Source: Candidatus Nanopelagicales bacterium (GTDB lineage: Bacteria; Actinomycetota; Actinomycetes; S36-B12). From it: a stretch of DNA of 56,324 bases. The notes beneath the pieces were generated by a model. That model had not been told where the DNA came from. It saw only the letters and a list, made by a program, of their open reading frames with translations, and did no database searches. Positions within the stretch are counted from its first letter, which is position 1; every line of letters starts with the position of its first letter. The position numbers were made by a program, and so were the translations under genes. The DNA is taken from assembly GCA_044345075.1 (NCBI GenBank), contig JBIJBU010000001.1, forward strand, positions 1-56,324, read 5' to 3'. Below, in pieces: positions 1,543-33,696 of the stretch.

Positions 1543-1696
1543 AACCCGCATCGTCTCAGACAGTGGCGGCTAAGTCAGTGAGTTTCGCGGTTGACCGCTC
1601 GAATCCCATTTCGGACCCTGGTGACCAGGCAAGACGGCCTCGAATGGACACCGAGAACATGGGGTAACAGATGGGCACCGACTGTAGGGTCAAGCC

Positions 1697-2128: not shown

Positions 2129-2460
2129 CGAAGATTGACTAGTCCGTCTTCTCATGCACAGCGCGTTCACCGGGCATGCTGCGATGGCCCGCTTCGCATC
2201 CTTGATGAGATGGTCGGTTACGTCGGTCACTGGGCCACCTGAGTGCAGCACCGGGTAGTCCCATTCGTCGAGACCAGTGAGATCGGGAAGCACTCCGGCG
2301 AAGAAGCCGTGACCATCGCGGGTAGGCGTTTCACTGTGCGTGCGGTCATGCGTTCACGATATTGACGGTGAATCAGAACCAGACCATCTGCTGCCTAAAT
2401 CGGGGTAAGGCTTTCGTGCTCTCAATGGACTCGCCCCTCCACCTGCGTCAAGATGGTGGA

Positions 2461-3729: not shown

Positions 3730-3823
3730 CATCGGAATTCGCGGATCTACCCATCGGTAATATCTGAGGCCGTACGATCGGCACAGCAGCTTTTCGGCTG
3801 CACCACACGTTATGGAGAACTAG

Positions 3824-4750: not shown

Positions 4751-4804
4751 TCTGACGCTGTTCAGATCTGACCTTGCATAACTGAACCGGGAAGGGGAAT
4801 CGTC

Positions 4805-7930: not shown

Positions 7931-8382
7931 ACGTAGACCCGAGTTCCGATCGGGGAGTTCCGGTAAAGCCATTCGGCTGCCTTGAGATCCCGGAGATTCA
8001 CGCAGCCGTGCGATGCGCCGTTGTAGCCATCCCGGCGAAAGTACTGCGAGTAGTGAATGCTCTCGGAGCCGTTGTAGAAGAGCGAGTAGGGCATCGGTGT
8101 GCCGTAGTCGGTCGATCGGTGATCCTTGGACTTTCGATAGACCCGGAAATCACCGAGATCAGTCGGGTAACGGGGTGAGCCGATGCGAATGTCCATCGTG
8201 CGCACCACCTGGCCGTCACGCACGTAGCGCAGTGCCAAGAATGTGGTGTCCACGCAGATCGTAGTCGCGATCTTGCAGGCACGTGGAATCGCCGGAAGGT
8301 CGGCATCCTCGGCGTGAGCGGAGTGCACCGGCAGGAGCCCTAGTGTCAGGGCTGCGAGAGTGAAGGCGATTGCTCGTCTCAT
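7924..8382 (-). CDS. Secreted L,D-transpeptidase (YkuD domain)
   Basis: It has a signal peptide ([24 protein letters not shown]) and the catalytic motif SHGCVNL near the C-terminus. Its start overlaps the upstream stop (ATGA at 8382-8379). Confidence 0.8.
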
Positions 8383-9920
8383 GACCGAGAGTCTAGAAGG
8401 CCCATCAGAGCCGCGATGCCGAGTACGGATCGGGGTGCGTAAGCGGTTCGCCAGAGGCCGCCGTGATTGGCGAGCGCACTGAATTGATCCATTGGATTTG
8501 CCAGGGGAGTGTCGGGATTGGCAACCGAGGCGGGATTGCGAAGATCGTGCACGAGCAGGGCGGCCATCAGCACTGTCGAAGTTGCTGGCTCGAAGATCTC
8601 GACTCCGAACCGCCCTGCACCGGCGTAGGCAGCGGAGAGTGCTCGGTTCTTGATCACTGATTGCGTGCGAGTGGCAGGTGCGAGGTTCAAGGAGACGGGA
8701 ACGCCTTGTGCACGCGAATACAGGGCACGCCAGCGCTGAATGCGCTTGGCCAGGGCGTAGTTCGGGCCCTGTTGCGGAATCAAGGAGTCATTGATGCCGA
8801 TCTCGCGACCCTCAGGGGTGACGTAGACATCGGGATAGTTCGGCTCGAACTGGCCCGCCATGCGAAGTGGCGCCTGGAAGAGAGCGGCAAAGCCGCGTGC
8901 GTCCCAACGCCGCTGCGCCTCGGTCACGGCCTCGATCGGCACCATGAATACGTCGGTAGGCGTGGCCAGGAATGCGAGCGTGATGTCGTCGCGGCGATTG
9001 ATGAGGTCATCGGCTATCGCATCTGCAGCGACTGAGAGAAGTGCGTGTGTTGCCCCATCGGCGTAGGCATACGTGCCCAGAACGAAAGGCTGATCAATGA
9101 CATCGAGCCAGGTACGGATCTCGGGTGCGTGCGTCAGCAGATTCACGCCGGCATGCTGCGCCACGTTGATGTCGTCATCCGGGTGCAACAGGCCCCCAAC
9201 AACAAAGGGCGGCTGACCCTCGGCGTCGAGTGCGATCGGGATGCGCATTGCTCCCGCAGTGCTGCGAGTCGTCTGAATCAGCTTCTCCCACAGTGTCGGG
9301 CGTGGCAGATCGACGGCGTGAATACGTGCGCCCCAGCGCAGGAGTGACCGAGTCGGACCCATCTCCGCCGAGGCACCAAGAATCGCGACATCGACATCAG
9401 TGAGATCGAGCCAGTCCGGGTTGTCGAGCACCGCGTGCATGGCCACGGCGAAACCCGGCTCGGCGATTCCGTCGCGCACCCACGTGTCGATCTGGGTGCG
9501 CAGTTCAGCCCCGAAGAGCCGCTTGCCGCGATACGGGACCGAGAGATCCTTTTCCCTCGCGGCGTGTCCGCGCACATCAACAGAGGCGAGGCCAGGTGCA
9601 GAGAACATTGCCATGGCCTCAGCAAGCGACTGCTCGACTCCATTGCGGCTCATGCGGAAACGCCGATGCGCAGACGAAAGTCCCTGCTCGGCGACACTCA
9701 GGGCAGCAGCCGGCGAAGAGGTCGCGCTGACGATGATGTCGCGCAGGGGTGTCAGGTAGCCCGATCGCCAGTCACGGGTGTGCTCGATACGAGCGGCGAG
9801 ATCTGGATCAATCTCACGGACGCTGTCAGCGAAGATGGCTCGACCGGTAGCACTCGTACTGCGCTCACCATCACCGCCGGCAGGAAAGCAGACGCCTTCC
9901 GGTGACTGATTCGATGCCAT
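8379..9920 (-). CDS. Hypothetical 513-aa protein with a possible Rossmann-like nucleotide-binding stretch
   Basis: This is a long ORF with coding-like composition. The stretch DVAILGASAEMGPTRSLLRWGARIHAVDLP resembles a GxSxxxG dinucleotide-binding loop followed by an acidic residue. I recognise no family. It is tightly packed within the minus-strand operon. Confidence 0.6.
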   Translation of the reverse strand: MASNQSPEGVCFPAGGDGERSTSATGRAIFADSVREIDPDLAARIEHTRDWRSGYLTPLRDIIVSATSSPAAALSVAEQGLSSAHRRFRMSRNGVEQSLAEAMAMFSAPGLASVDVRGHAAREKDLSVPYRGKRLFGAELRTQIDTWVRDGIAEPGFAVAMHAVLDNPDWLDLTDVDVAILGASAEMGPTRSLLRWGARIHAVDLPRPTLWEKLIQTTRSTAGAMRIPIALDAEGQPPFVVGGLLHPDDDINVAQHAGVNLLTHAPEIRTWLDVIDQPFVLGTYAYADGATHALLSVAADAIADDLINRRDDITLAFLATPTDVFMVPIEAVTEAQRRWDARGFAALFQAPLRMAGQFEPNYPDVYVTPEGREIGINDSLIPQQGPNYALAKRIQRWRALYSRAQGVPVSLNLAPATRTQSVIKNRALSAAYAGAGRFGVEIFEPATSTVLMAALLVHDLRNPASVANPDTPLANPMDQFSALANHGGLWRTAYAPRSVLGIAALMGLLDSRS

Positions 9921-9939: not shown

Positions 9940-11115
9940 TCAGCCGCGTTCCATCAGAAGCTTGCGATACGGCGCGAGTTCCGATGTCTTGTCGATTCCG
10001 ATAACACCGACGAGGCCTGAGTCGTCAAAGTACTCAGCGATGCATGCCTCATCGGCAGTGCCCGCAACGATCTCGATGCGCGTGGCGTTACCGGGCATGC
10101 CGAAGGACTGGATCTTGTGGCTGTACTGATCGGACCAGAACGATGGCATCGCGGTGAACGGGGTCTGCGAGACCTCGTCGCCCGCAAGCAGGGCGGCGAG
10201 AGTCTGACCAGCGCGCTTGCCCGTCTCGGTTGGCATATTCCAGTGCTCGATCCGACGCTTAGGCCCGGAGAAGAGTGCGTTGTGATGGCGGGCAATATCG
10301 CCGACTGCCACCACATTGATCGTGCCGTCAACGATCATCGCGTCATCGACCGAGAGCCCGTCGCCGAGATCGAGACCATTGCCATCGAGCCACTCGACAT
10401 TGGCCACCGAGCCCACGGCTTCCACGACGATATCGGCTGGCAGGACTGTTCCGTCATCGAGCGTGGCAGATTCGACACGGTCATCGCCGTTAAAAGATGT
10501 GACGGTGCGTCCGAGGTAAAAGTTCACGCCATTGGCTTCGTGTCGGCGACGCATCCCGGCACCCAGCTCGGCGCCCAACGGGCGAATCATCGGCTCGGCA
10601 TCGAGAGCGACGATGTTCACCTCGCAGCCAACCTTGCGAGCGGTGGCTGCAACCTCACAGCCGATAAAGCCGGCACCCATGATGAGCACCTTGGCGCCGG
10701 GAACGAGCGCCGCCCGAAGTGCGCGGGCATCCTCGGCTGTGCGCAATACGACTCGACCCGTCTGCGGGCCGGGGATCGGAAGTCTGCGGGGGCGAATGCC
10801 GGCAGCGACAGCGAGGGCATCGAACTGCAGAACAGTTCCGTCAGCGAGGGTGACGGTGCCCTCGTTGATGCTGGAGGTCACTGCAGGTGAACCGAGTTTC
10901 CAGGTGACGTCATCCACGTGGGCCTTGCGGCGGAACTCGAGATCTGCGACCTCGACTCCGCCCGCGAGCGCCTCCTTCGACAGTGGCGGTCGGTTGTACG
11001 GCAGATGGATCTCGTCACCGACGATGGTGACCTCACCTGCGTAACCTGACGCGCGCAGAGTCTCGGCTACGCGCAGACCGCCGAGGCCTGCGCCGATGAT
11101 GACGACGCCGGCCAT
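9940..11115 (-). CDS. FAD-dependent NAD(P)H:ferredoxin reductase (putidaredoxin-reductase type)
   Basis: The N-terminus is VVIIGAGLGGLRVAETLR...IVGDE.HLPYNRPPLSK. A second dinucleotide fold is VLIMGAGFIGCEVA. It sits 2 nt downstream of the ferredoxin gene. Confidence 0.85.
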   Translation of the reverse strand: MAGVVIIGAGLGGLRVAETLRASGYAGEVTIVGDEIHLPYNRPPLSKEALAGGVEVADLEFRRKAHVDDVTWKLGSPAVTSSINEGTVTLADGTVLQFDALAVAAGIRPRRLPIPGPQTGRVVLRTAEDARALRAALVPGAKVLIMGAGFIGCEVAATARKVGCEVNIVALDAEPMIRPLGAELGAGMRRRHEANGVNFYLGRTVTSFNGDDRVESATLDDGTVLPADIVVEAVGSVANVEWLDGNGLDLGDGLSVDDAMIVDGTINVVAVGDIARHHNALFSGPKRRIEHWNMPTETGKRAGQTLAALLAGDEVSQTPFTAMPSFWSDQYSHKIQSFGMPGNATRIEIVAGTADEACIAEYFDDSGLVGVIGIDKTSELAPYRKLLMERG

Positions 11116-11117
11116 GA

Positions 11118-11306
11118 CTAGGAGATCTCGATGGCCTGCATCGGGCAGACGTCAGCGGCGCTCTCGACATCAGCGCGACGATCGTCGGCAACCTCAGCGA
11201 CGTAGACGATGTGCCCGGCAGCATCGAGGGAGAAGACGTCAGGTGCCTCGAAGCAGCACTGGCCGTAGTGCTGGCACTTGTCCATGTCGATGGTGACCTT
11301 GATCAT
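11118..11306 (-). CDS. Small [3Fe-4S]-type ferredoxin of the kind that partners with P450s
   Basis: The 62-aa product is MIKVTIDMDKCQHYGQCCFEAPDVF...VCPMQAIEI. The C-x5-C...CP cysteine pattern is typical of actinobacterial P450 ferredoxins. Confidence 0.85.
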   Translation of the reverse strand: MIKVTIDMDKCQHYGQCCFEAPDVFSLDAAGHIVYVAEVADDRRADVESAADVCPMQAIEIS

Positions 11307-12184
11307 TACTTCTTCTCCTCAACGGTTGACGGGTAGAGATCCTTCGAAGGGGTGCGGATACCGCGGAACTCCCAGTCGCCGCCCTTGGCGGTCGAGATGA
11401 CCTCTTCGCTCTCGGTCGGCTGCGCACCGACATCGGTGCGAATGGGAGTGGGGCCTTCCACGATCACGTTGGTCAGCGAGCCCAGGCCCTCGACCTCGAC
11501 GGTGACGACATCACCGGGGTAGACCGTGCGCGAGAACGCCGGGGTGCCGGAGAACAGGATGTCGCCGGGCACGAGCGTGATGGTGCGCGCGATATCGGCG
11601 ACCAGGTAGTGCATGTCCCATTCCATCTCGGCGGTCGTGGAGTCCTGCTTCACGACGCCATTCACGATGGTGCGGATGCGCTTGTTGCGGAAGTCCCAGT
11701 CGGTGACCAGGCCCGGCCCGATGGGCGCCAATGTGTCAGCACCCTTGACCCGAAGCATCGAGCCGGCATCGGTATCGCGGAAGTCGTGCAGGCCGTAGTC
11801 GTTGCCGATCGTGTAGCCGGCGATGTACTCGCCTGCCTCATCGGGCGAGATGTTGCGGCAGGTCTTGCCGATGACGATGACGATCTCGCCCTCGTAGTTC
11901 AGCCACTTGCAGCCATTCGGGCGCACGACCGCGCCGTTGTGTGAATTGATTGCCGTGATGGGCTTGTGGAAGTACGTGGGAGCCGGCGGCAGCTTGGTCA
12001 TGAATTCCTGAGTACGCGAGTCGTAGTTCAGGTGAACGCAGATGATCTTCGTGGGCTCCACGGGCGCAAGGTGAGTCGCATCGGCGATCGCTACCACTCG
12101 GCCGTCGCCGGCAATGAGATTCTCGCCATCGCGCACGACCTGCACGGGTGCGCCATCGAGGAGGATCCTTCGGTATTCGGTCAC
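11306..12184 (-). CDS. Fumarylacetoacetate hydrolase (FAH) family hydrolase/isomerase/decarboxylase (HpaG-like)
   Basis: It has a duplicated-looking FAH fold. Motifs include KIICVHLNY, YEGEIVIVIGK, GYTIGNDYG and PGDILFSGTP. Confidence 0.8.
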   Translation of the reverse strand: MTEYRRILLDGAPVQVVRDGENLIAGDGRVVAIADATHLAPVEPTKIICVHLNYDSRTQEFMTKLPPAPTYFHKPITAINSHNGAVVRPNGCKWLNYEGEIVIVIGKTCRNISPDEAGEYIAGYTIGNDYGLHDFRDTDAGSMLRVKGADTLAPIGPGLVTDWDFRNKRIRTIVNGVVKQDSTTAEMEWDMHYLVADIARTITLVPGDILFSGTPAFSRTVYPGDVVTVEVEGLGSLTNVIVEGPTPIRTDVGAQPTESEEVISTAKGGDWEFRGIRTPSKDLYPSTVEEKK

Positions 12185-13095
12185 GCTTCTGCCCTTCGAG
12201 TTGTCCAGCCGGTGTCGGGTCGATCGAACCAGACATGAACCTGGCTCGTGCCAATGGAGTTTTCGTAGTCGCTGATCTGCACGCCCGGAGCTGAGAAATC
12301 ACGTTCACCGAGGGCAGCAGCCATCATCACGTAGTGCGCGAACTTCGCTTCAGGACGGACCTTGAGGAATTCCGGCATGGTGTCGAGCACGAGATCGTGA
12401 CGACCTTCCTTGAACCAGTCGAGACGCTGGTAGTCGGCCTCGCGGGCTTCCGGGCTGAAGATGTGCGAGGGATCGCTGGACTCGTGCTTGCGCAGTTCGC
12501 GCAGCGGATAGAACGTGTGCGACAGGGAACCGGTCGCGATGATGATGACCTTGCGATCGCTCTTGCGAATGGCTTCGCCGATTGCCCGACCCACGCGTAG
12601 GAAATCCTCGGTATCAGCGGTCTGACACACGCTCACCGAGATCCAGGACTTGTCAGGATTTCCCTTGCCGAGGTAACTCCAGATGTTCACGGAGGGGTAG
12701 TAGATCGGCAGGTAGTGATCATCATTCGCGGTGATCCAGGTGTCGTGCGGAGCACCCTCGGCTGCGATCAAGTGCGCGAGTTCGGGGTCGCCCTTCCAGT
12801 CGTAGGGAATGCGGCACATACCGCGCGGCAGCTCCTCGGCCGTGAAGAGACCCGAGCGACGATCCTGTGCGGTGACGATGAATTCGACTGTCGTGAACCA
12901 GTGCGAGTCGAGCAGCAGCACGGTGTCGTAGTCATAGGTGTCGAAGACGTCGCGGCGCAGTTTCTCGAGTGCCGGGACTAGCGAGATCTCCTTGCCCTCA
13001 TTGAGCTCGTAACGAGTCTCCTTCGGCAACATGATGGTCGGCACATGCGACAGCAGACCGGCTGCGACTACCTCACCCATGACTCCTACTTCCAT
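12181..13095 (-). CDS. Class III (LigB-type) extradiol ring-cleavage dioxygenase, HpaD/HpcB-like
   Basis: The N-terminal VAAGLLSHVPTIM, the ...LLLDSHWF motif and ATGSLSHTF fit the LigB/homoprotocatechuate 2,3-dioxygenase family. ATG 13080 is an alternative start. Confidence 0.75.
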   Translation of the reverse strand: MEVGVMGEVVAAGLLSHVPTIMLPKETRYELNEGKEISLVPALEKLRRDVFDTYDYDTVLLLDSHWFTTVEFIVTAQDRRSGLFTAEELPRGMCRIPYDWKGDPELAHLIAAEGAPHDTWITANDDHYLPIYYPSVNIWSYLGKGNPDKSWISVSVCQTADTEDFLRVGRAIGEAIRKSDRKVIIIATGSLSHTFYPLRELRKHESSDPSHIFSPEAREADYQRLDWFKEGRHDLVLDTMPEFLKVRPEAKFAHYVMMAAALGERDFSAPGVQISDYENSIGTSQVHVWFDRPDTGWTTRRAEA

Positions 13096-14546
13096 CCGTT
13101 CGGTGCGAACACGGTGTTCTTGACGTCAGCGTAGAAATCAAATGACCACAAGCCGCCCTCGCGACCGATGCCTGAACGCTTCGAGCCGCCGAACGGCGCT
13201 GAGAGATCGCGAACGAAGAAGCAGTTCACCCAGATCGTGCCGGCGACCAGGAACTTCGTGAAGGCCTCTGCACGCTCGCGATTGCCACTGACGACGCAGG
13301 CTGCGAGCCCGAACTCAGTGCCATTGGCGAGTGCCAGGCCTTCCTCGTCGGTGTCGAAGGTTTGCATCGTGAGAACGGGGCCGAAGACCTCTTGCGTGAG
13401 GATCTCGCTGCCCGCAGGTGCGTCGATCACGAGTGTCGGCTTGATGTAGTGAGTGCCGAGTGCGGAGTTCACTTCGCCGCCGTACGCGATCGTTGCGCCG
13501 TCGTTCTTCGCACGCTCGATGAAACCGGTGACGCGCTCCACATGCTTGAGGTGGATATTCGGCCCGATCTGGGTTTCCTCATCGCGCGGATCGCCCTGCT
13601 TGATCTGCGCAGCACGCTCAGCGAACTTTGCGGCGAACGCCTCGGCAATGCCCTTCTGTACGAGCAGTCGAGTGCCAGCAAGGCACACCTGGCCGGCGTT
13701 GTCGTACTGCTCGATCGCGAGCTCAACAGCGAGATCGAGATCGGCGTCGTCGAGGATCACTGTCGGGCTCTTGCCGCCGAGTTCGAATGAGCACGGGATC
13801 AGATTCTCAGCGGCTGCGCGAGCGACGGTCTTCGCGGTGGGCACCGAGCCGGTGAAGCAGATGCGCGAGACATCGGGATTCTCGGTGAGAGGTGCACCGG
13901 CCTCGACGCCGAAGCCCTGCACGACATTGAACACACCTGCGGGCAGGCCTGCCTCATGTGCGAGCTGTGCGAAGTACGAAGCCGTGAGCGGTGCCCACTC
14001 CGGTGGCTTGAGCACCACAGTGTCGCCCGAGGCCAGTGCCGGCCCGATGCGCCAGGTGGCGAGCATCAGTGGTGCATTCCACGGCGTGATGATTACCGCA
14101 ACACCGGAGGGATCCCAGGTGACGTGGTTGGTGTGACCGCGTGTTTCGAACTCAGGGTGCTTGAGATCGTTCATCGCGTAGTCAGCGAAGTAGCGGATGT
14201 TCATGACGACGCGGGGCATGACTCCGCGGCGATGCGAGCGCAGCAGCGAACCGTTGTCGTGAGTCTCGAGCTGGGCGAGCTCCTCGATGTGCGCCTCGAT
14301 GTTGTCGGCAACCTTGTGCAAGATCGCGCCGCGCTCCTGCGGGCTCAACTTGGCCCAGGCAGGGAAGGCGGCCTTGGCCGCGGCGACTGCGGCATCGGCT
14401 TCGGCGCGACCGCCTCGGCTGACCTGCGCGATCACGGTGCCGTCGATGGGGGAGACCGAGTCGAAGGTGTCGGCGGAAGCTACCCGCTGACCCCCGATCC
14501 AGTGCCGGGTATCAACCGTGACGCCGGCAACGGTGGCAGTCGACAT
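13086..14546 (-). CDS. NAD-dependent aldehyde dehydrogenase (HpaE-like ring-fission semialdehyde dehydrogenase)
   Basis: ALDH motifs are FTGSVPTAK, ELGGKSP and the catalytic CLAGTRL. I trimmed the start from 14684 to ATG 14546 (MSTATVAGVTVDTRHWIGG). Confidence 0.85.
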   Translation of the reverse strand: MSTATVAGVTVDTRHWIGGQRVASADTFDSVSPIDGTVIAQVSRGGRAEADAAVAAAKAAFPAWAKLSPQERGAILHKVADNIEAHIEELAQLETHDNGSLLRSHRRGVMPRVVMNIRYFADYAMNDLKHPEFETRGHTNHVTWDPSGVAVIITPWNAPLMLATWRIGPALASGDTVVLKPPEWAPLTASYFAQLAHEAGLPAGVFNVVQGFGVEAGAPLTENPDVSRICFTGSVPTAKTVARAAAENLIPCSFELGGKSPTVILDDADLDLAVELAIEQYDNAGQVCLAGTRLLVQKGIAEAFAAKFAERAAQIKQGDPRDEETQIGPNIHLKHVERVTGFIERAKNDGATIAYGGEVNSALGTHYIKPTLVIDAPAGSEILTQEVFGPVLTMQTFDTDEEGLALANGTEFGLAACVVSGNRERAEAFTKFLVAGTIWVNCFFVRDLSAPFGGSKRSGIGREGGLWSFDFYADVKNTVFAPNGWK

Positions 14547-14592
14547 CTGTGCTCTCATTCGTCGTTCGGAAAGTATGCTGATCGCAATTCTA

Positions 14593-14614
14593 GATCGTTC
14601 GGACCCTAACGGAA
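14593..14614. promoter_or_regulatory. Island operator motif, site 1 (GATCGTTCGG-AC-CCTAACGGAA)
   Basis: The left half matches the consensus perfectly and the right half matches 6/10. An extra half-site, cgTCGTTCGG, lies at 14561-14570. The site sits between the divergent starts at 14546 (-) and 14647 (+). Confidence 0.5.
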
Positions 14615-14646
14615 TACGGGTCCGGCCACCAGCCTTTGGAGGAATT

Positions 14647-15345
14647 GTGACCCGTCCGCGCATTGCGATCCTGGGCAGGTTCACCGAATCGGCGAGTGCC
14701 TTGCGCTACCGCGGTCTGGTCAGCTCCCGTGCCCTCCTGGAATACGTCTGGGCCGCCGGCGGCGACCCCATGACCTTGCTGCCTGGCAGTGACGCTGATG
14801 CTCTCGACTGGGAGGCCCGACTCCGGGGTTTTGAAGGAGTACTGCTCCCTGGTGGCGGTGATATCCGTCCGACTCGTTACGGCAAGGGTGACGATGATCC
14901 GACCCTGTACGACATGGACGACATGCAGGATGAGTCCGACTTCACACTTACCCGCTACTGCCTTGACCAGGGGATCCCGATGCTCGCGGTCTGCCGCGGC
15001 CTGCATGTGCTCAACGTGGTGACGGGCGGCACCCTTGTGGTGGACATGCCCGATCACCACCGTCATGTGGTGCACGACGTGACCTTGAGCGAGGGCGCTA
15101 CAGCCCTGGGAATCACGGATTCGCACGTGGCTGCGTCCTGCTACCACCATCAGGCGGTCGAGCGCGTGGGCGACGGGCTGACCGTCATCGGAATGTCAGC
15201 AGACGGCATCGTGGAGGCAGTCGTCGCCGATGCGAAGGCCTGGACAGTCGGCGTGCAATGGCACCCGGAGGACACCTACGCCAGCGATGAGCACCAGATG
15301 CAGCTGATGCGGCGCCTCGTGCAGGAGTCGTCGAGCGTTCTCTGA
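14647..15345 (+). CDS. Gamma-glutamyl-gamma-aminobutyrate hydrolase family protein (PuuD-like, peptidase C26 / class I GATase)
   Basis: The nucleophile motif is LAVCRGLHVLNV and the His motif is GVQWHPE. A GGAGG RBS precedes GTG 14647. I trimmed the ORF-track start at 14518 because it overlaps the divergent gene. Confidence 0.8.
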   Translation: MTRPRIAILGRFTESASALRYRGLVSSRALLEYVWAAGGDPMTLLPGSDADALDWEARLRGFEGVLLPGGGDIRPTRYGKGDDDPTLYDMDDMQDESDFTLTRYCLDQGIPMLAVCRGLHVLNVVTGGTLVVDMPDHHRHVVHDVTLSEGATALGITDSHVAASCYHHQAVERVGDGLTVIGMSADGIVEAVVADAKAWTVGVQWHPEDTYASDEHQMQLMRRLVQESSSVL

Positions 15346-15361
15346 CTAGGGCAAGGAACGG

Positions 15362-15853
15362 CTAATTCGCGGCTTGCGTGATGCGGCGCAGGATGTCGGC
15401 AGCCACGGGCTGCTCTGCCGAGGTGAGGTCGCGCACCACGTGGCGCTCAGCCTTGTTGAAGTCCGGGAAGAGCTTCTTCATCAGGCGCTTGCCCGAGGCA
15501 GTCAACTCGACCGTGACGAGGCGACCGTCCTTCTCGCCGCGCTTGCGCTCGACGAAGCCGCGGCCTTCGAGGGTGGTGAGCACCCCGCTCAGAGTGGCCT
15601 TGGAGACCCCGGCCTCGGAGGCGATCTCACGGGTCTCGGCGGTCTCCCAGATCCAGGCCACCCAGAGCACCACGAAGGCTGTCCAGGTGAGGTTGGACTT
15701 GGCCAGCACCGTGCGCTCCATGTGATTGCGGGCAGCATTGGCGGCGCGGAACAGGTTGGCGGTGACGGCCATGGCCTCGAAGTCGAGATCCATTCCGGCC
15801 AGGCGCGTAGCGACCTGGCTCTCGGTCTCGTCGAGAGTGTGCTGCCCGGGCAT
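15362..15853 (-). CDS. MarR family transcriptional regulator
   Basis: The product is 163 aa. The winged-helix region is EIASEAGVSKATLSGVLTTLEGRGFVERKRGEKDGRLVTVELTASG. Confidence 0.85.
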   Translation of the reverse strand: MPGQHTLDETESQVATRLAGMDLDFEAMAVTANLFRAANAARNHMERTVLAKSNLTWTAFVVLWVAWIWETAETREIASEAGVSKATLSGVLTTLEGRGFVERKRGEKDGRLVTVELTASGKRLMKKLFPDFNKAERHVVRDLTSAEQPVAADILRRITQAAN

Positions 15854-15867
15854 ATGGCCCCCATCTT

Positions 15868-15891
15868 GAGGTGAATCGTGAGGTGATTCGT
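15868..15891. repeat. Tandem 12-nt direct repeat GAGGTGAATCGT / GAGGTGATTCGT
   Basis: I read this directly from the sequence. It lies 15-38 nt upstream of the MarR start codon in the MarR/P450 divergent region and may be an operator. Confidence 0.5.
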
Positions 15892-15978
15892 GTGGCCTGT
15901 CGAGGCACGTGATCAGGAATTATTGCCCGAAGTCTGGCAACACTTCACATGAATCGCCACATCGGTCTACAGTACTCA

Positions 15979-16000
15979 GATAGTTCGGACCCGAACGATC
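15979..16000. promoter_or_regulatory. Island operator motif, site 2 (GATAGTTCGG-AC-CCGAACGATC)
   Basis: This is a 22-bp palindrome with one mismatch between its arms. It ends 18 nt upstream of the P450 ATG at 16019. Confidence 0.6.
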
Positions 16001-16018
16001 TTGAGTTCCGGAGGATTC

Positions 16019-17263
16019 ATGAGCACGCTGACCGATGTCACCCTGGCCGACCTGAGCCTCTTCGCTGATGGCGCCCCCTGGCAGGTCTTCGAAGATCTGC
16101 GCAAGAACTCGCCTGTCCACTGGAACGTGGAGGAGGCTCCGAACAACGGCTTCTGGTCGGTTACTCGCTACAACGACATCGTCGACGTGCTTCGCGACAC
16201 CGAGACCTACTCCAGCGAGATTGGCGCGGCCAATCTCGAGGAGCTCGACACTCGCCAGCTCGAAATCCGCAAGTCGATTCTGGAGACCGACGGCCCTCGT
16301 CACCGCGCCCTGCGCAAGATGCTGCAGCCGCAGTTCACCCCTCGCGCGCTCGCGGGCTACGAGACCTTCCTTCGCGGTATCACCGCCACGACCCTTGATC
16401 GTGCACTCGCCAAGGATCAGTTCGACTTCGTCGCCGACGTCGCCGCTGATTTCCCGATTCGCGTGCTGGCGCAGTTGCTCGACGTTCCCGAGTCCGACAT
16501 TCCTCAGCTGATCAAGTGGGGAAACAAGATGGTCGGAAATCAGGACCCCGAGCATGCCGATGTTCTCGCCGACAGCCCTGAAAGTGAGATGTACCGCGAT
16601 CTCCCGTTCCGTTCGCCGGCAGCTCTCGAGGTGTTCAAGTACGGGTACGAGCTCGCCTGGGGTCGCAAGGGTGGTAACGGAACCGACCTCGTGTCGGTGC
16701 TGATCAACACCGAGCCGTCTGACGGCATTGCTATCGATGCACGTGACTTCCGCAATTACTTCCTGCTGCTCGTCATCGCAGGCAACGAGACCACTCGCCA
16801 CACCATTACGCACACCATGAACAACCTGATGGCCAACCCCGATCAGCTTGCAATCCTTCGCGAGAAGCCCGAACTGATCCCGTGGGCCGTGGAGGAATTC
16901 CTGCGCATGGCTAGCCCGGTGCATCACTTCCGTCGTACCGCGCGGCACGAGACAGTGCTCAATGGCCAGGAGATCAAGGCCGGCGACAAGGTTGTCGTGT
17001 GGTTCGGCTCTGGCAATCGCGACGAGGAAATCTTCGCCGATCCCTACAAGTTCGACGTGCAGCGTCATCCGAATGAGCACATGTCCTTCGGCCGCGGTGG
17101 CCCGCATATGTGCCTGGGCAACTCACTCGCGCGCCTCGAGATCCAGATCATGTTCGAGGATCTTCTCTCTCGCGATGTTGATCTGATGCCCAATGGAAAA
17201 GCTGATTACGTGCTGAGCAACTTCGTGCACGGCTTCAAGCGCCTGCCGGTCAAGAAGGCGTAA
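16019..17263 (+). CDS. Cytochrome P450 monooxygenase
   Basis: The heme-binding loop is FGRGGPHMCLGNSLA, the I-helix is VIAGNETTR and the ExxR motif is EEFLR. A GGAGGA RBS precedes ATG 16019. Confidence 0.9.
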   Translation: MSTLTDVTLADLSLFADGAPWQVFEDLRKNSPVHWNVEEAPNNGFWSVTRYNDIVDVLRDTETYSSEIGAANLEELDTRQLEIRKSILETDGPRHRALRKMLQPQFTPRALAGYETFLRGITATTLDRALAKDQFDFVADVAADFPIRVLAQLLDVPESDIPQLIKWGNKMVGNQDPEHADVLADSPESEMYRDLPFRSPAALEVFKYGYELAWGRKGGNGTDLVSVLINTEPSDGIAIDARDFRNYFLLLVIAGNETTRHTITHTMNNLMANPDQLAILREKPELIPWAVEEFLRMASPVHHFRRTARHETVLNGQEIKAGDKVVVWFGSGNRDEEIFADPYKFDVQRHPNEHMSFGRGGPHMCLGNSLARLEIQIMFEDLLSRDVDLMPNGKADYVLSNFVHGFKRLPVKKA

Positions 17264-17280
17264 TTCATCCGAGCAATGAT

Positions 17281-17310
17281 GAAGGGCCGTCGACTACTCG
17301 CCGGCCCTTC
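17281..17310. terminator. Hairpin between convergent genes (probable bidirectional terminator)
   Basis: GAAGGGCCG and CGGCCCTTC form a perfect 9-bp stem around a 12-nt loop. The hairpin lies between the P450 stop (17263) and the GATase1 stop (17324). Confidence 0.55.
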
Positions 17311-17323
17311 GTCATCTCAGCTT

Positions 17324-18055
17324 TCAGTCGCGAACGAGATGCCCGAGTCCGGCCACGTTGGTGAGGAAGCTGTCGACGAGAGCATGGGCACGCTTCTGCG
17401 CCTTTGGCTCCTCGGCATATGAATAGGCAAGGAGAACATCGGGATCCTGACCGTCAGCGATGATCAAGTCGCGACCATCGCCCGGTGAGCTGTACCAGCC
17501 CTGCAGCATGTCGCCGGTGAGCTCGGGGTGGAACTGCAGTGCCAGGTTCTTGCGCAGAGTGAAGGCCTGCGACGCCCGAGAGGTGCGCGCGATCTCGGTG
17601 GCGTCCGGTGGCAGTACCCAGCGGTCATAGTGGAAGGAGAACCACGGCCCTTGGGGCACGAGTTCTTCGTCGTCGCTCCACACGCTTGTCCAGCCGATCT
17701 CGCAGTCTGGCGCGCGCCCGACGCCGCCGCCGTGCGCACGTGCCAGCAACTGACCACCGAAGCAGATGCCCATGACGGGCACACCAGCCGCATCGGCCTC
17801 GCGCAGCCATTCGACCTCGGGCAGGAGCCATGAGCCGATAGTGGAGTCATCCCAGGCCCCCCAGGGTGAGCCCATGGGGACGATGACATCGAAGGTGGTG
17901 GGGTTGGGGAACTCGTAGGTCACGACGCCGGGGGTGTTGTAGTGCGCGGCCTCGACGATGAGCTCTTCCACCACCTCAAAGCCGAGTTCGGCGAATCGCT
18001 CGGAGACGAGCCGGGGCGGGCTGAAGGCGTCGTGCTGCATGAATAGAACCCGCAT
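17324..18055 (-). CDS. Class I glutamine amidotransferase-like protein (GATase1), candidate gamma-glutamyl-amide hydrolase
   Basis: The nucleophile elbow is MGICFGGQLLA and the His motif is LQFHPE. I trimmed the start from 18391 to ATG 18055 (MRVLFMQHDAFSPP). Confidence 0.8.
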   Translation of the reverse strand: MRVLFMQHDAFSPPRLVSERFAELGFEVVEELIVEAAHYNTPGVVTYEFPNPTTFDVIVPMGSPWGAWDDSTIGSWLLPEVEWLREADAAGVPVMGICFGGQLLARAHGGGVGRAPDCEIGWTSVWSDDEELVPQGPWFSFHYDRWVLPPDATEIARTSRASQAFTLRKNLALQFHPELTGDMLQGWYSSPGDGRDLIIADGQDPDVLLAYSYAEEPKAQKRAHALVDSFLTNVAGLGHLVRD

Positions 18056-18111
18056 GCGGCAAATCCTCTCCCAAACTGGCCCCGCGGGAGGACGATTCGA
18101 CATAGGATTTC

Positions 18112-18137
18112 GAGATCGTTGGGGGCCGAACGATCTC
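18112..18137. promoter_or_regulatory. Island operator motif, site 3 (GAGATCGTTGGG-GG-CCGAACGATCTC)
   Basis: This is a 26-bp palindrome with 11/12 arm matches, the best copy. It lies between the divergent starts at 18055 (-) and 18188 (+). Confidence 0.65.
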
Positions 18138-18187
18138 TGACGATACTCACAAAGGCGAGAAACTCGCAACGGCGACAGGGGCAGCAC

Positions 18188-19537
18188 ATGCAGCAGGATT
18201 TGGCAGACGTCCGCAGGGACCTCGAGACCCAGGGCATCGACATCCTTCGGCTGCTGTGGCCCGATGTACTCGGCCTGCCGCGCTCGAAGGACATCACGGT
18301 GTCGCAGCTCGAGCGAGCGGCCGGTCACGGCCCCGCCTTCTGCCAGGCCACCTGGACAACCACGACTCGCGGTGACGTTCTCGACGGCCACGGCAGTCTT
18401 CAGGACGGACTCTCCGACATGGTGTCGCGTCTTGACGCGTCCACCATTCGCCCGATGCCGTGGGAGGAGGGCGTCGCCTACGCGATCGCTGACATTGACG
18501 AGCCGGACGGAACCCCGAATGCCATCGCGCCGCGGTCACTGCTGCGCCGCATCATCGAGGAGTACAAGGCACTCGGTCTGCTCCCGGTTGTTGGGCCCGA
18601 ACTCGAGTTCTATTTTGCGCACAAGCCGAGTGACAAGTGGGAGCGCATCCTCAACAAGACCGGCCGCGTGTACCAGACAGGTTCACTCGTCGATCCCGAC
18701 GGAACCTTCCTGTACCTGCTTCGCATGCTCGATCGCCTCAACATTGGCGCCTTTGCGGGCAACCACGAGTTCTGCCCGTCGCAGTACGAGATCAACCTGT
18801 GGCACGGCGATGCACTCGATGCTGCTGATCGCACCTTCTTGTTCAAGACCGCAATCAAGGACATCACGAATCGTCGCGGCATCATGAGCACCTTCATCGG
18901 CAAGCCGTGGGACGACGAGGGAGGCAGCGGTTTCCACCTGCACTTCTCAGTCACTGATGTCAACGGCCAGAACTTGATGGGCGAGCCCGACGGCGAGCTC
19001 TCGCTGATCTCACGGCGCATGATGGCCGGCATCCTCGAGCACGCACCTGCACTCGTGGCCTTCTGCAACCCGACCATTAACGCCTACAAGCGCCTCGGCC
19101 CCGACACCATGGCCCCTCATCGTTCGAGCTGGGGCTACGACAACCGCACCACGTTCATCCGCATCCCACCGGAGCGTGGTGCGGGCACCCGCCTCGAGGT
19201 GCGCATCGGCGACGGCGCTGCGAACCCGTATGTGATGATCGCGGTGATTCTCGCGGCGGCCCTCGATGGCCTTCGCCGTCAGCTCGACTGCCCGCCGCAC
19301 TCTGAGGGCTGGTCATACACCGACGAGAGCCGCCCGGTGCTGCCCATGACCCTCACCGATTCGCTCAATGCCATGCGTGCCGACACCTTCCTGGTCGACA
19401 TCCTGGGCGAGCCCTTCGTGCAGGCCTTCGAGACTCTCAAGCGCGACGAGGTCAAGCGTTACGAGGAGGCCGTCGAGGATCCCAGCACTCGTGAGGTGAC
19501 CGCGTGGGAGATCGCGGAGTACCTAGAGGACTATTAG
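18188..19537 (+). CDS. Glutamine synthetase family protein (GS-like gamma-glutamyl ligase), copy 1
   Basis: GS catalytic-domain motifs are GPELEFYF, NHEFCPSQYEIN, GSGFHLHFS, NAYKRL and RIPP...RLEVR. The N-terminal domain is short, as in PuuA/GlnA2-4-type ligases. I trimmed the start to ATG 18188. Confidence 0.85.
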   Translation: MQQDLADVRRDLETQGIDILRLLWPDVLGLPRSKDITVSQLERAAGHGPAFCQATWTTTTRGDVLDGHGSLQDGLSDMVSRLDASTIRPMPWEEGVAYAIADIDEPDGTPNAIAPRSLLRRIIEEYKALGLLPVVGPELEFYFAHKPSDKWERILNKTGRVYQTGSLVDPDGTFLYLLRMLDRLNIGAFAGNHEFCPSQYEINLWHGDALDAADRTFLFKTAIKDITNRRGIMSTFIGKPWDDEGGSGFHLHFSVTDVNGQNLMGEPDGELSLISRRMMAGILEHAPALVAFCNPTINAYKRLGPDTMAPHRSSWGYDNRTTFIRIPPERGAGTRLEVRIGDGAANPYVMIAVILAAALDGLRRQLDCPPHSEGWSYTDESRPVLPMTLTDSLNAMRADTFLVDILGEPFVQAFETLKRDEVKRYEEAVEDPSTREVTAWEIAEYLEDY

Positions 19538-19540
19538 AGG

Positions 19541-20386
19541 GTGCATAACTTCATCCTCACCCTGCGGTGCCCTGACGGCCCCGGCATTACCCATGCGATC
19601 ACGGGAGCATTGCTCTCGATCGGCGCGAACATCCTCGAGCAGGCGCAGTTCACCGAGCCGACCGAGAACCTGTTCTGCAACCGCACCCGCTTCGAGACAA
19701 AACTCGATGACATCGCTCGCGTGCGTGAGGCGATCGAGGCCGCGACCTCGCACCTGTCCCCGACGATCACGCTCCGCAATGAGCATGATCCGCGCCGCAT
19801 TCTGGTCATGGTGTCGAAGCAAGATCACTGCCTTGTCGATCTTCTCTACCGTCGCCAGCAGGGCGAACTGCACGTAGAGATCCCCGTCATCGTTTCGAAT
19901 CACCCTGATTGCGCACCGATCGCCGCGGCACATGGCATCCCGTTCGTTCACCTGCCGGTGACTCCGGAGACCAAGCAGGCGCAGGAGCACCGCGTGCGCG
20001 AACTGATGGTCGAGTACTCAATCGATGCGGTCGTGCTCGCCCGCTACATGCAGGTGCTCTCAGATGAGTTCTGCGCCGAGCTCGAGGGTCGCGCGATCAA
20101 CATCCATCACTCATTCCTGCCGGGCTTCAAGGGCGCTCGCCCGTATCACCAGGCATATGCGCGCGGTGTGAAGATCATCGGCGCCACTGCGCACTTCGTG
20201 TCAGCTGAGCTCGACGAAGGCCCCATCATCGAGCAAGACGTCGCACGCGTGACTCATGCGCAAGATCCCGAGCATCTTGCTGAGATCGGTCGAGATGTCG
20301 AGCGGCTCGTGCTCGCACGCTCAGTGCAGCTCTACGGCGCAGATCGCGTGATGCTCACCGGCCATCGCACGGTGATCTTTTCCTAG
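19541..20386 (+). CDS. purU: Formyltetrahydrofolate deformylase
   Basis: It has an N-terminal ACT domain (ILTLRCPDGPGITHAITGAL) and a formyltransferase core (LARYMQVLS...INIHHSFLPGFKGARPY...GVKIIGATAHFV). The GTG start lies 3 nt after the GS-like stop. Confidence 0.85.
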   Translation: MHNFILTLRCPDGPGITHAITGALLSIGANILEQAQFTEPTENLFCNRTRFETKLDDIARVREAIEAATSHLSPTITLRNEHDPRRILVMVSKQDHCLVDLLYRRQQGELHVEIPVIVSNHPDCAPIAAAHGIPFVHLPVTPETKQAQEHRVRELMVEYSIDAVVLARYMQVLSDEFCAELEGRAINIHHSFLPGFKGARPYHQAYARGVKIIGATAHFVSAELDEGPIIEQDVARVTHAQDPEHLAEIGRDVERLVLARSVQLYGADRVMLTGHRTVIFS

Positions 20387-20395
20387 TTGATCTGA

Positions 20396-21328
20396 CTATG
20401 CGGTCAGTGCGTCAACTCGACGCACGACCTCGCGGCAGAACTCTGCATGCTTGTCCCGCTCATCGATGAAGATCGACGGCTTGATACAGAAGGTGCTGAA
20501 GCCCATCTCGAGCTGAGCGGGAATGCCCTCCAGTGCCTCGGGCAATGGTGCGACGGAGTGCGCATCGGGGAACTCAACCCGGGTTCCACCGACCATCTCG
20601 ATCTCGTCAATGGAGCGACCGGCGGCCTCCAGGCCGGCCCGCAGCTTGGCGACATCGTCGGCCTTTGGGCGACCGAGGGGGTGGTACCCGCTGCCGTACT
20701 TCACGAGGCGGTTGAGCACGGGATCAGTCAGGCTCTCGCCGCCGAACCACATGGCTGGGCCCTGGGGCGTGCACGGCTTGGGGTCGATGTAGACGTCAGT
20801 GAAGTCGAAGAACTCTCCGTGGAAAGACGCGGGGGACTCGGCCCACACGCGGCTCCAGATCTCGAGATCCTCATCAAGGATCTTGCCGCGCTTGGTGAAC
20901 GGAACACCGAGCGCGTCGTATTCGTCCTTATGCCAGCTGACCGTCGGCTGAATCACGAGCCGACCCTCGGAGAGTAGGTCGAGAGTCGCGAGATCTTTCG
21001 CGAGGGCGAGCGGATGACGCAGCGGAGCGATCAGCGCGATACCGCCGACGCGAATTCGAGTGGTAGCGGCGGCGATGGCACTGAGCATCACGATCGATGA
21101 CGGCCATTCGGTCGCGGGATCCTGATTACCCGGCATCGCGTAGTCACGTGGATTCTCCATGCGACCCTCGGAGCCGGCCGAGGGGCCGAGCAGCACATGG
21201 TCGCTGATCATGATCATGTCGAAGCCGGCATCCTCGGCCTCCTGGGCCATGCGCACGATGCCGCGAATATCGCGCGGGTCGGTCATGGTCCAGTTCTCGG
21301 TGAGAACGCTGACGAGCTTCGGCTTCAT
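20396..21328 (-). CDS. LLM-class (luciferase-like) flavin/F420-dependent oxidoreductase
   Basis: The N-terminus is ...AQEAEDAGFDMIMISDHV. The overall pattern is a TIM barrel typical of the bacterial luciferase family. Confidence 0.75.
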   Translation of the reverse strand: MKPKLVSVLTENWTMTDPRDIRGIVRMAQEAEDAGFDMIMISDHVLLGPSAGSEGRMENPRDYAMPGNQDPATEWPSSIVMLSAIAAATTRIRVGGIALIAPLRHPLALAKDLATLDLLSEGRLVIQPTVSWHKDEYDALGVPFTKRGKILDEDLEIWSRVWAESPASFHGEFFDFTDVYIDPKPCTPQGPAMWFGGESLTDPVLNRLVKYGSGYHPLGRPKADDVAKLRAGLEAAGRSIDEIEMVGGTRVEFPDAHSVAPLPEALEGIPAQLEMGFSTFCIKPSIFIDERDKHAEFCREVVRRVDALTA

Positions 21329-21339
21329 GCGCTGACGAA

Positions 21340-22149
21340 CTAGATCGCAGCCGAGTTGTCGGCGAGCAGCGTGCCGCCATGGAAGGTCGTGCCGACCTCG
21401 CAGTAGTAGCCGGCGATGATCTCGTCGACAGGCAGCAGTGATGCTGGCTGATCCCAGGGTGAGTCATGCAAGGTGAGTTCGGCATCGCCGATCCACGGCT
21501 GGCCGAGATCGAGATCGACGCCGCCCATCGTGGCGAGCTGGTTCAGCGACAGCCCGGCGCCAGGCACCATCGACGGCATCACGCGGTGATGCAGCATCTT
21601 GTGACCGTTGACAAAGCCATTCGACGGTGCTGGCTCACGCAGGGTGACCTTTGCACTTGCGAGTCGATGGTCGTACGCGGCGAGTGATGCGCCGAAGGTG
21701 CCACCCTCAGCAATCCGCGGAGCAGCCTTGCCACGGTTGTACGGGCGGGTGACGAAGACACTGCCGAGCTTCTTCGGGTAGCCCTGGAACCAGCCGCGAC
21801 CGATCGCGAAGTCGGTGGTGACCCAGATCAGCACGCAGCGGCTGTAGGTGACGCCCTGGTAGGAACAGCGCACCACGACGAAGGCCTCGAGGTATTGGGC
21901 ACGCGAGGGATCGAGGAGTTCGGCGCCACCGGTGCTGCACGACTGCCAATCGGCCCAGATGAACGCGACTGCTCCGGGGTCCTCCGGCGCGAGGTCGAGC
22001 TCGGGGGGCAAGATCGCGCGCACGTTCGCCGGGTCAGTGCGGTACTCAACTGTCATCAAGGTGCCGGAGTAGTGCCAGGGCATCTCGGGAATGAGTGCCG
22101 AGCCGCCATCGGGCGTGAAGGGGGGCAAGAAGCCCTGGGAGTTCGCCAT
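21340..22149 (-). CDS. Acetoacetate decarboxylase (ADC) family protein
   Basis: MANSQGFLPPFTPDGGSALIPEMPWHYSG..LMTVEYRTDPANVRAILP is characteristic of the ADC-like fold. I trimmed the start to ATG 22149. Confidence 0.7.
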   Translation of the reverse strand: MANSQGFLPPFTPDGGSALIPEMPWHYSGTLMTVEYRTDPANVRAILPPELDLAPEDPGAVAFIWADWQSCSTGGAELLDPSRAQYLEAFVVVRCSYQGVTYSRCVLIWVTTDFAIGRGWFQGYPKKLGSVFVTRPYNRGKAAPRIAEGGTFGASLAAYDHRLASAKVTLREPAPSNGFVNGHKMLHHRVMPSMVPGAGLSLNQLATMGGVDLDLGQPWIGDAELTLHDSPWDQPASLLPVDEIIAGYYCEVGTTFHGGTLLADNSAAI

Positions 22150-22176
22150 AGTGCAGGAGCCTAGCAACTCCTCGGG

Positions 22177-22198
22177 GATCGTTTGGGCCCAAACAACC
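22177..22198. promoter_or_regulatory. Island operator motif, site 4 (GATCGTTTGG-GC-CCAAACAACC)
   Basis: It contains the perfect 14-bp palindrome GTTTGGGCCCAAAC. It lies between the divergent starts at 22149 (-) and 22254 (+, TetR). Confidence 0.55.
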
Positions 22199-27415: not shown

Positions 27416-27450
27416 CTTGCGCAGCGCCCCTGTTTAATCAAGTATTCGTA

Positions 27451-27472
27451 AGTCGTTCGGTTCCGTACAAGC
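27451..27472. promoter_or_regulatory. Island operator motif, site 5 (AGTCGTTCGG-TT-CCGTACAAGC)
   Basis: The left half matches 8/10 and the right half 7/10 to the consensus. It lies 26 nt upstream of the permease ATG at 27498. Confidence 0.45.
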
Positions 27473-27497
27473 TCGACCACGTCCCTCTGGAGGAGAC

Positions 27498-33642: not shown

Positions 33643-33696
33643 CGGGCCTACTTTCTGCGATATTTCCCCATGAAGGGCCTGGTCTGAGACTACATT

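Follow-up and report, generated by a model that had tools for sequence, protein, structure and literature searches.

A 56-kb contig of a Candidatus Nanopelagicales bacterium (GenBank JBIJBU010000001.1; its 56,324 nucleotides (nt) are referred to here as the window) carries genes for a glutamine synthetase (GS)-like ligase, a cytochrome P450 and a hydrolase of the class I glutamine amidotransferase fold (GATase1) next to an operon for aromatic ring cleavage. The source genome is actinobacterial, 2.07 Mb in size and 94% complete, with a GC content of 62%. Gene identities were assigned by Pfam and NCBIfam profile searches and by sequence matches to the PDB, and equivalog cut-offs were applied. 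A preliminary description of positions 14647–20386 had named six genes there, encoding a PuuD-like hydrolase, a MarR regulator, the P450, the GATase1, the ligase and PurU. All six lie where it had placed them, with the ligase, P450 and GATase1 genes inside 3.5 kb (16019–19537). A scan of one genome per species for orthologues of the P450 yielded 80 loci (67–100% identity) in freshwater metagenome-assembled genomes (MAGs) labelled Nanopelagicales or acI/acSTL and in cultured Microbacteriaceae of the genera Salinibacterium, Rhodoglobus, Lacisediminihabitans, Frigoribacterium, Glaciihabitans and Marisediminicola. The orthologous proteins in about 80 other loci are 46–99% identical to those of the window (46–97% for the ligase). 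In thirty-two loci the sequence flanking the P450 orthologue is at least 6.5 kb long on either side; these are referred to as full loci, and the genes of the cluster are listed below with the number of full loci that contain each.

9940–11115, minus strand: ferredoxin reductase, P450 redox partner (Pyr_redox_2 and Reductase_C); 30 of 32 loci
11118–11306, minus strand: ferredoxin, 62 amino acids (aa), single-cluster, P450 redox partner (PF13459 Fer4_15, E = 8e-13); 31 of 32
11306–12184, minus strand: FAH-family enzyme like the C-terminal domain of HpaG, a meta-cleavage decarboxylase/isomerase (PF01557, E = 3e-54); 31 of 32
12181–13095, minus strand: LigB-type (class III) extradiol dioxygenase (PF02900); 32 of 32
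13086–14546, minus strand: aldehyde dehydrogenase (ALDH), HpaE-like, i.e. like a ring-fission semialdehyde dehydrogenase (PF00171, E = 4e-152); 32 of 32
14647–15345, plus strand: PuuD-like C26 gamma-glutamyl amidohydrolase, accessory (PF07722, E = 4.5e-39); 12 of 32
15362–15853, minus strand: MarR-family repressor (PF01047; best NCBIfam match HpaR); 32 of 32
16019–17263, plus strand: cytochrome P450 related to the CYP125/124/126 group (PF00067, E = 1.2e-27); orthologues at 61–99% identity in 80 loci and on a Streptomyces plasmid
17324–18055, minus strand: GATase1, a stand-alone class I GATase-fold amidohydrolase (PF00117; triad motifs GICFGGQ and FHPE intact); 31 of 32
18188–19537, plus strand: GS-like gamma-glutamyl-amine ligase (PF00120, E = 1.4e-84); 32 of 32
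21340–22149, minus strand: ADC-fold Schiff-base enzyme of the MppR/Sbi00515 type (PF06314, E = 2e-57); 31 of 32
27498–29039, plus strand: APC-family permease, the conserved transporter of the cluster (PF13520 and PF00324); 29 of 32

The functional unit is one of about 12 genes and not the six originally flagged. The module boundaries drawn in the preliminary description have to be moved, as the conserved unit also takes in the reductase, ferredoxin, FAH, LigB and ALDH genes on one side and the MppR-like ADC-fold gene and the APC permease on the other. In the window the permease is split from the rest of the cluster by an inserted module; in 29 of the 32 full loci it adjoins the ADC-fold gene (49–72% identity). 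GATase1 is the divergent neighbour of the ligase in 31 of 32. The minus-strand operon runs in the order ALDH, LigB, FAH, ferredoxin, reductase and a 513-aa protein, with the ferredoxin and reductase at its tail. As had been remarked, positions 14647–20386 encode no ferredoxin, and the pair at 9940–11306 that had been proposed as the partner of the P450 belongs to the conserved set (30 to 31 of 32 loci). The presence of ring-cleavage genes, the ADC-fold gene and the APC permease in the conserved unit speaks for an aromatic amine as the substrate and not for an alkyl amine.

The units of the cluster are also tied together by a palindromic sequence that occurs in four of their spacers:

14593–14614: operator site 1, degenerate, 3 mismatches, in the spacer between the ALDH and PuuD-like genes
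15978–16001: operator site 2, 1 mismatch, ending 18 nt before the ATG of the P450 and immediately preceded by a promoter-like TTCACA-18-TACAGT
18113–18136: operator site 3, a perfect palindrome, AGATCGTT-N8-AACGATCT, in the 132-nt spacer between GATase1 and ligase
22177–22198: operator site 4, 2 mismatches, in the spacer between the ADC-fold gene and a TetR gene, 28 nt upstream of the ADC-fold gene

The earlier placement of site 2 relative to the P450 start, and the divergent arrangement of GATase1 and ligase around site 3, are both correct, and the interpretation of the palindromes as operators is borne out by their conservation across related loci. Of 56 loci, 52 have the core ATCGTT-N8-AACGAT between GATase1 and ligase when no more than 1 mismatch in 12 is allowed. 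With at most 2 mismatches it occurs in the MarR–P450 spacer of 38 of 76 loci, upstream of the ADC-fold gene in 28 of 41 and upstream of ALDH in 14 of 55. Within the window, 10 matches to the palindrome were found at up to 3 mismatches compared with 3.3 expected, and none of 100 shuffled sequences reached 10. Apart from sites 2 and 3 the 2.07-Mb genome has no strong copy; a degenerate half-operator lies upstream of the APC permease, at about 27450–27473. The MarR protein is likely to be the palindrome binder because it is the only regulator common to all operator-bearing loci, and it probably represses all units through ATCGTT-N8-AACGAT, the predicted operator. The shared operator and MarR indicate a single regulon made up of the ligase, P450, hydrolase, ring-cleavage and ADC/permease units. 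The best explanation of the genes at 14647–20386 is that they are the upper half of a single MarR-controlled catabolic regulon, and that this regulon covers at least 9940–22198 and the permease at 27498–29039.

The ligase was described as GS-like, and it is indeed no genuine glutamine synthetase. In an alignment with the GlnA of the same genome it retains the metal, ATP and glutamate residues (NHE, QYE, GSGFHLH, NAYKR, NRTTFIRIP and RLEVR) but has lost the ammonium site: FDGSS has become RGDVL, the Y179 loop is deleted and E327 is replaced by Met, whereas D50/S53, Y179 and E327 are all kept in GlnA. The same loss of D50, Y179 and E327, with the metal, ATP and glutamate sites kept, has been reported for GlnA4 and PauA7 (PA5508), and PauA7 glutamylates aromatic monoamines (PMC6529630). 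Unlike the window's ligase, from which they are distant (4HPP, 98 bits), those enzymes have no associated P450 or ring-cleavage genes. Against the gamma-glutamylputrescine synthetase equivalog NF045547 the ligase scores 244 bits, below the cut-off of 650. The annotation labels “glutamine synthetase” and “glutamine amidotransferase” are misleading at this cluster.

The P450 carries the motifs FGRGGPHMCLG, AGNETT and EEFLR, and its leading PDB matches are an ancestral reconstruction of CYP125 (360 bits) and the extant CYP125, CYP126 and CYP124 enzymes (about 232 bits). The longest open reading frame (ORF) over this region is antisense to it (15920–17107, minus strand); it has no family match and was dismissed as spurious. 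The best PDB match of GATase1 is 7D54, a stand-alone glutaminase-type GATase of M. smegmatis (E = 1e-58) that was crystallised with glutamine. The 60-nt spacer between the convergent P450 and GATase1 genes (17264–17323) contains a GC-rich hairpin, AAGGGCCG...CGGCCCTT, which looks like a bidirectional terminator and was not listed by a simple terminator scan. The second hydrolase, of the PuuD/C26 type, had been noted next to the MarR gene. It is present, and its nucleophile motif AVCRG and its WHPE motif (the Cys and His motifs) are intact, but it is not part of the core, and it scores only 74 bits against the PuuD equivalog (cut-off 266). What fills this second-hydrolase slot varies: the PuuD-like C26 enzyme in the window, a carbon–nitrogen hydrolase (PF00795) in Microbacteriaceae, and both in some loci. 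Such variable filling hints that a second amide hydrolysis matters. The carbon–nitrogen hydrolase gene, which is absent from the window, lies directly after the reductase gene in about 20 Microbacteriaceae loci (e.g. L079:3708–4523 and L037:2990–3832, both minus strand), and its product may take over the role of the PuuD-like hydrolase without being homologous to it.

Among the lower-pathway enzymes, the LigB-type dioxygenase has its best PDB match in 8IQ8, a 3,4-dihydroxyphenylacetate 2,3-dioxygenase, and retains the histidines of the HVP, DSHW and GSLSH motifs. The ADC-fold enzyme matches MppR (4JM3, 178 bits) and Sbi00515 (4ZBO, 152 bits) and keeps the catalytic lysine, K126 aligning with K122 of Sbi00515; its score against the MppR equivalog is 192 bits, with a cut-off of 380. 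Enzymes of the Sbi00515 type interconvert 2-oxo-3-enoates with pyruvate and an aldehyde. We propose that the ADC-fold enzyme is the hydratase-aldolase of the lower pathway, a step for which this Hpa-like set has no other enzyme: neither the HpaH hydratase nor the HpaI aldolase was found among the cluster genes scanned, and the MppR/Sbi00515-type enzyme stands in their place.

Further clues to the substrate come from the related loci. In every Microbacteriaceae locus a 456-aa group II pyridoxal phosphate (PLP)-dependent decarboxylase (PF00282) follows the P450 at about 20 nt (L079:11276–12646, plus strand), and in many loci labelled Nanopelagicales a different PF00282 decarboxylase, about 35% identical to the first, follows the ferredoxin reductase within the ring-cleavage operon (L017:2435–3844, minus strand). 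Two independent insertions of a decarboxylase at different positions suggest an amino acid as the source of the amine. For both decarboxylases the closest solved structures include those of aromatic amino-acid decarboxylases, namely 4OBU, a gut-bacterial tryptophan decarboxylase, and the 3,4-dihydroxyphenylalanine (DOPA) decarboxylase 7XIN, but also that of the lysine decarboxylase DesA. Taken together with the catechol-type lower pathway, the decarboxylases favour an arylalkylamine such as tyramine or dopamine. The usual upper route, by which homoprotocatechuate would be formed, is missing: searches for HpaB (PF03241) in the window's genome (94% complete) and five other carriers found no match, and four of the five genomes checked for copper amine oxidase lack it. 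As regards the use of gamma-aminobutyrate, each of the five genomes checked has a GabT that exceeds the equivalog cut-off.

These observations lead us to think, on balance and from sequence comparison, that the cluster encodes one pathway in which an aromatic amine is degraded by way of glutamylation, P450 oxidation and meta-cleavage. The APC permease would import the amine or its parent amino acid and, in the relatives, the cluster-encoded group II PLP decarboxylase would make the amine. The ligase would use ATP to join the gamma-carboxyl of glutamate to the amine nitrogen, and the P450, fed by the ferredoxin and reductase of the neighbouring operon, would oxidise the gamma-glutamyl amide, in the version that we favour by hydroxylating the ring to a catechol. 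The ring would then be opened by the LigB-type dioxygenase, and the HpaE-like ALDH, the FAH decarboxylase/isomerase and the MppR-like hydratase-aldolase would carry the product on to pyruvate and an aldehyde. Glutamate would be freed by GATase1 and, where present, by the PuuD-like hydrolase.

The version of this pathway that we prefer, tentatively, has the P450 hydroxylating the ring of gamma-glutamyl-tyramine, with the glutamyl group staying on through ring cleavage. Counting carbons along the Hpa route, this would give pyruvate, CO2 and gamma-glutamyl-4-aminobutanal, and from the last gamma-glutamyl-gamma-aminobutyrate (gamma-Glu-GABA), which would be the last intermediate if the protection holds and is a substrate of PuuD-type hydrolases. 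Ring-cleaved DOPA with a free amine cyclises spontaneously (PMC11926856), and for this reason glutamyl protection makes chemical sense. Slightly less probable, still within the one-pathway reading, is that hydrolysis or N-dealkylation comes before ring cleavage.

Several observations weigh against the pathway as proposed, in which the substrate, the position of P450 attack and the order of the steps are all inferred. The Hpa-like proteins all fall below the equivalog cut-offs of their best NCBIfam matches: HpaD_Fe for LigB (129 bits, cut-off 316), HpaE for ALDH (512, cut-off 638), the HpaG C-terminal domain for FAH (197, cut-off 276) and HpaR for MarR (54, cut-off 121). The best NCBIfam matches of the decarboxylases are sub-threshold ones to diaminobutyrate and aspartate decarboxylases. 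The window's own cluster has no decarboxylase, the in-cluster gene being lost in this genus, and the two homologues in the genome (46–54% identity) lie on other contigs, C23 and C58. The PuuD-like gene occurs in only 12 of 32 loci and so cannot supply the final hydrolase everywhere. Among solved structures, the nearest relatives of the P450 (CYP125, 124, 126, 142 and 153) hydroxylate aliphatic termini and not aromatic rings, and the nearest solved relative of GATase1 is a glutaminase.

The last two points would suit a rival scheme of N-dealkylation, to which we give a rather low probability. Here the P450, as a relative of aliphatic C–H hydroxylases, would hydroxylate the carbon next to the amide nitrogen, and the resulting carbinolamide would fall apart into glutamine and an arylacetaldehyde. 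GATase1 would act as a glutaminase, ALDH would make homoprotocatechuate (from dopamine), and meta-cleavage of the Hpa type would end in pyruvate and succinic semialdehyde. The lower enzymes would then work on their canonical substrates, in agreement with the best matches to HpaD, HpaE, HpaG and HpaR, although these matches are all well under the equivalog cut-offs. The scheme has difficulties with the gene content, however. Tyramine would require a 4-hydroxyphenylacetate 3-hydroxylase, and with HpaB absent from the six genomes checked it works only for dopamine; two aldehyde oxidations would be needed and the core has one ALDH; and neither the PuuD-like hydrolase nor the carbon–nitrogen hydrolase is explained. 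The aromatic character of the substrate is itself denied by a second rival, an Ipu-like alkylamine pathway as suggested in the preliminary description. In Pseudomonas sp. KIE171 the Ipu pathway converts isopropylamine to L-alaninol; by analogy a short alkylamine would be glutamylated, hydroxylated at a methyl or alkyl carbon and released by amide hydrolysis as an amino alcohol, and the ring-cleavage genes would be unrelated neighbours. The same three enzyme families together with ferredoxin and reductase form the ipu cluster on plasmid pTC1 (CP000475) of Paenarthrobacter aurescens TC1, which has been described as highly homologous to several KIE171 ipu genes (PMC1713258), and the relatives of the P450 include enzymes that hydroxylate terminal methyl groups. 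Ligase, P450 and reductase are, however, only 35%, 29% and 32% identical to their TC1 counterparts, and the hydrolases 31–34% (partly over short stretches). These values are no better than those of other paralogues in the window, GS_3 being as close to the TC1 IpuC homologue as the ligase (35%). By naming convention a CYP family is usually drawn at 40% identity, and the P450 falls under this line. The resemblance therefore lies in enzyme families and pathway logic and not in orthology. The Ipu-like triad stands insofar as the genes for ligase, P450 and GATase1 do belong together as a conserved functional unit of the glutamylate–oxidise–hydrolyse type; the implied orthology (29–35% identity) is not supported. 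In addition, the triad never occurs without LigB and ALDH in the 32 full loci and shares its operator with them. The ferredoxin and reductase of the P450 are located within the ring-cleavage operon and not beside the P450. Synteny and operator join the triad to an extradiol pathway, to the genes for the MppR-like enzyme and the APC permease and, among relatives, to amino-acid decarboxylases recruited twice, and the module has no alcohol dehydrogenase or ALDH branch for an amino alcohol. We consider this alternative improbable.

Still less weight is given to an aniline-type pathway, in which an arylamine would be glutamylated as by AtdA1, the P450 would hydroxylate the anilide in the ortho position, GATase1 would free 2-aminophenol and LigB would be a 2-aminophenol 1,6-dioxygenase. 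An adjacent pair of GS-like ligase and GATase-like hydrolase acting before ring oxygenation is a hallmark of aniline and naphthylamine clusters (AtdA1–A5, TdnQTA1A2B, NpaA1–A5; PMC11335346), and the beta subunits of 2-aminophenol dioxygenases are the second-best solved relatives of LigB. LigB nevertheless matches HpaD better (65 compared with 37 bits), and no gene for a partner alpha subunit is present. Those systems use a Rieske dioxygenase in place of the P450, and no Rieske domain was found among the genes of 7924–40910 scanned with Pfam. In similarity to the ligase, AtdA1 (7CQL, 165 bits) does not surpass ordinary GS (217 bits). Arylamines are not products of PLP decarboxylases, and the decarboxylases of the relatives point to an arylalkylamine.

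The proposed glutamylation and meta-cleavage pathway can also be compared with other known systems. As in the Puu pathway of E. coli (PuuA, PuuB, PuuC and PuuD; putrescine), the amine would be shielded by gamma-glutamylation during oxidation and a PuuD-family hydrolase is present, and the predicted late intermediates, gamma-glutamyl-aminobutanal and gamma-Glu-GABA, would be identical. Unlike in Puu, the cluster has no PuuB oxidase, its ligase, ALDH and hydrolase score far under the Puu equivalog cut-offs, and the carbon skeleton would derive from an aromatic ring and not from a diamine. With the homoprotocatechuate (Hpa) meta-cleavage pathway the cluster shares a LigB-type dioxygenase, a semialdehyde dehydrogenase, a FAH decarboxylase/isomerase and a MarR regulator (HpaR), whereas HpaBC, HpaF, HpaH and HpaI are missing and the MppR/Sbi00515-type enzyme takes the place of hydratase and aldolase.

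Three other genes flank or interrupt the conserved set in the window:

8379–9920, minus strand: 513-aa protein, family unknown; last-but-one gene of the ring-cleavage operon
19541–20386, plus strand: PurU, formyl-tetrahydrofolate deformylase (TIGR00655, 318 bits, cut-off 286; NF004684, 373 bits, cut-off 223); 2 of 32 loci
20396–21328, minus strand: F420-type LLM oxidoreductase, accessory (TIGR03619, 182 bits, cut-off 167); 6 of 32

PurU had been counted as a member of the module in the preliminary description, and this is not supported. The gene is co-directional with the ligase, begins 3 nt downstream of it and has intact catalytic motifs. It is, however, the sole purU of the genome, and exactly one purU above the cut-off is present in each of six genomes; it lies inside the cluster only in the window's lineage, and in two complete chromosomes it is found 15–36 kb away from the cluster. 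PurU is probably a housekeeping gene and a lineage-specific neighbour, here likely co-transcribed with the ligase, and not a pathway member. A role as a sign of one-carbon release (e.g. demethylation) was rejected as a conserved feature, since each genome has a single purU and most carriers have it outside the cluster. The 513-aa protein has no Pfam or NCBIfam match, and an AlphaFold2 model from 10 sequences reached a mean pLDDT of 40 and is unusable. It is kept after the reductase or the decarboxylase (64–95% identity) only in the window's lineage (7 of 32 loci), and its membership in the pathway is uncertain.

A more distant version of the cluster is found on plasmid NZ_CP107732.1 of Streptomyces canus (positions 48993–74219; 43–76% identity). 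A 61%-identical P450 directly follows a 46%-identical ligase there, and the two are divergent from genes for ferredoxin, reductase (49% identical to that of the window), ADC-fold enzyme, ALDH, LigB and FAH, followed by a TetR gene, a second P450 with its own ferredoxin, an LLM oxidoreductase (57% identical to the window's) and an APC permease. This cluster, with TetR and no MarR, has no ATCGTT-N8-AACGAT site, and no GATase1 or PuuD gene was found in the 25 kb shown. The second P450 has no orthologue in the 80 loci and was discarded as a conserved second hydroxylase. The plasmid is linear and mobilizable, and the cluster adjoins a transposase and integrases; this setting suggests horizontal transfer of the core.

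Also encoded in the window are two more GS-like proteins and an additional set comprising P450, GATase1 and GS-like ligase (module 3, 30732–36912). This set is paralogous to the first, its P450 being 40% identical, and has as neighbours a zinc alcohol dehydrogenase, a protein of mycothiol-type isomerase fold and a CoA-transferase; in two related loci (L017 and L019) the APC permease gene immediately precedes it. In the Salinibacterium and Rhodoglobus loci a 122-aa ORF without a family match (80–99% identity) is located between the decarboxylase and GATase1 (L079:12677–13045, plus strand). On contig C58 of the window's own genome (locus L095, positions 475–4758) the 54%-identical decarboxylase homologue overlaps the end of a gene for a FAD-linked oxidase (PF01565/PF02913) by 4 nt, and this pair may be a separate small amine or acid module. 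Three lake MAG contigs (L011, L012 and L014) carry P450 orthologues of 85–89% identity under the public title “Bifidobacterium breve”, which is almost certainly a taxonomic mislabel.

The cluster is one of gamma-glutamylation-dependent amine catabolism joined to meta-cleavage, a combination that is new as far as we found: the literature searched contained no description of the cluster or of bacterial catabolism through gamma-glutamyl-tyramine or gamma-glutamyl-dopamine. We speculate that abundant lake actinobacteria, some with genomes of 1.2–2.4 Mb, and cold-water Microbacteriaceae could degrade tyrosine-derived amines by a protecting-group route, a possibility that we put forward with considerable reserve. 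Tyramine would be converted to gamma-glutamyl-tyramine and by the P450 to gamma-glutamyl-dopamine, whose ring would be opened and trimmed with the nitrogen masked, preventing a cyclisation of the betalamic-acid type. The products would be pyruvate, CO2 and gamma-Glu-GABA, and from there on the route would coincide with the final part of the Puu pathway. If true, this would be a new branch of gamma-glutamylation-dependent amine catabolism, with glutamyl serving as a protecting group while the aromatic ring is cleaved, and with the usual hydratase and aldolase replaced by an ADC-fold enzyme of MppR-like type. Cultured carriers such as Salinibacterium amurskyense DSM 16400, Rhodoglobus aureus JCM 12762 and Lacisediminihabitans profunda make the question directly testable. 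Among 201 genomes sampled from the window's order, about 40, some of only 1.2–1.8 Mb, contain a P450 orthologue with at least 60% identity, and the cluster could therefore be a significant sink in lakes for aromatic biogenic amines or tyrosine.

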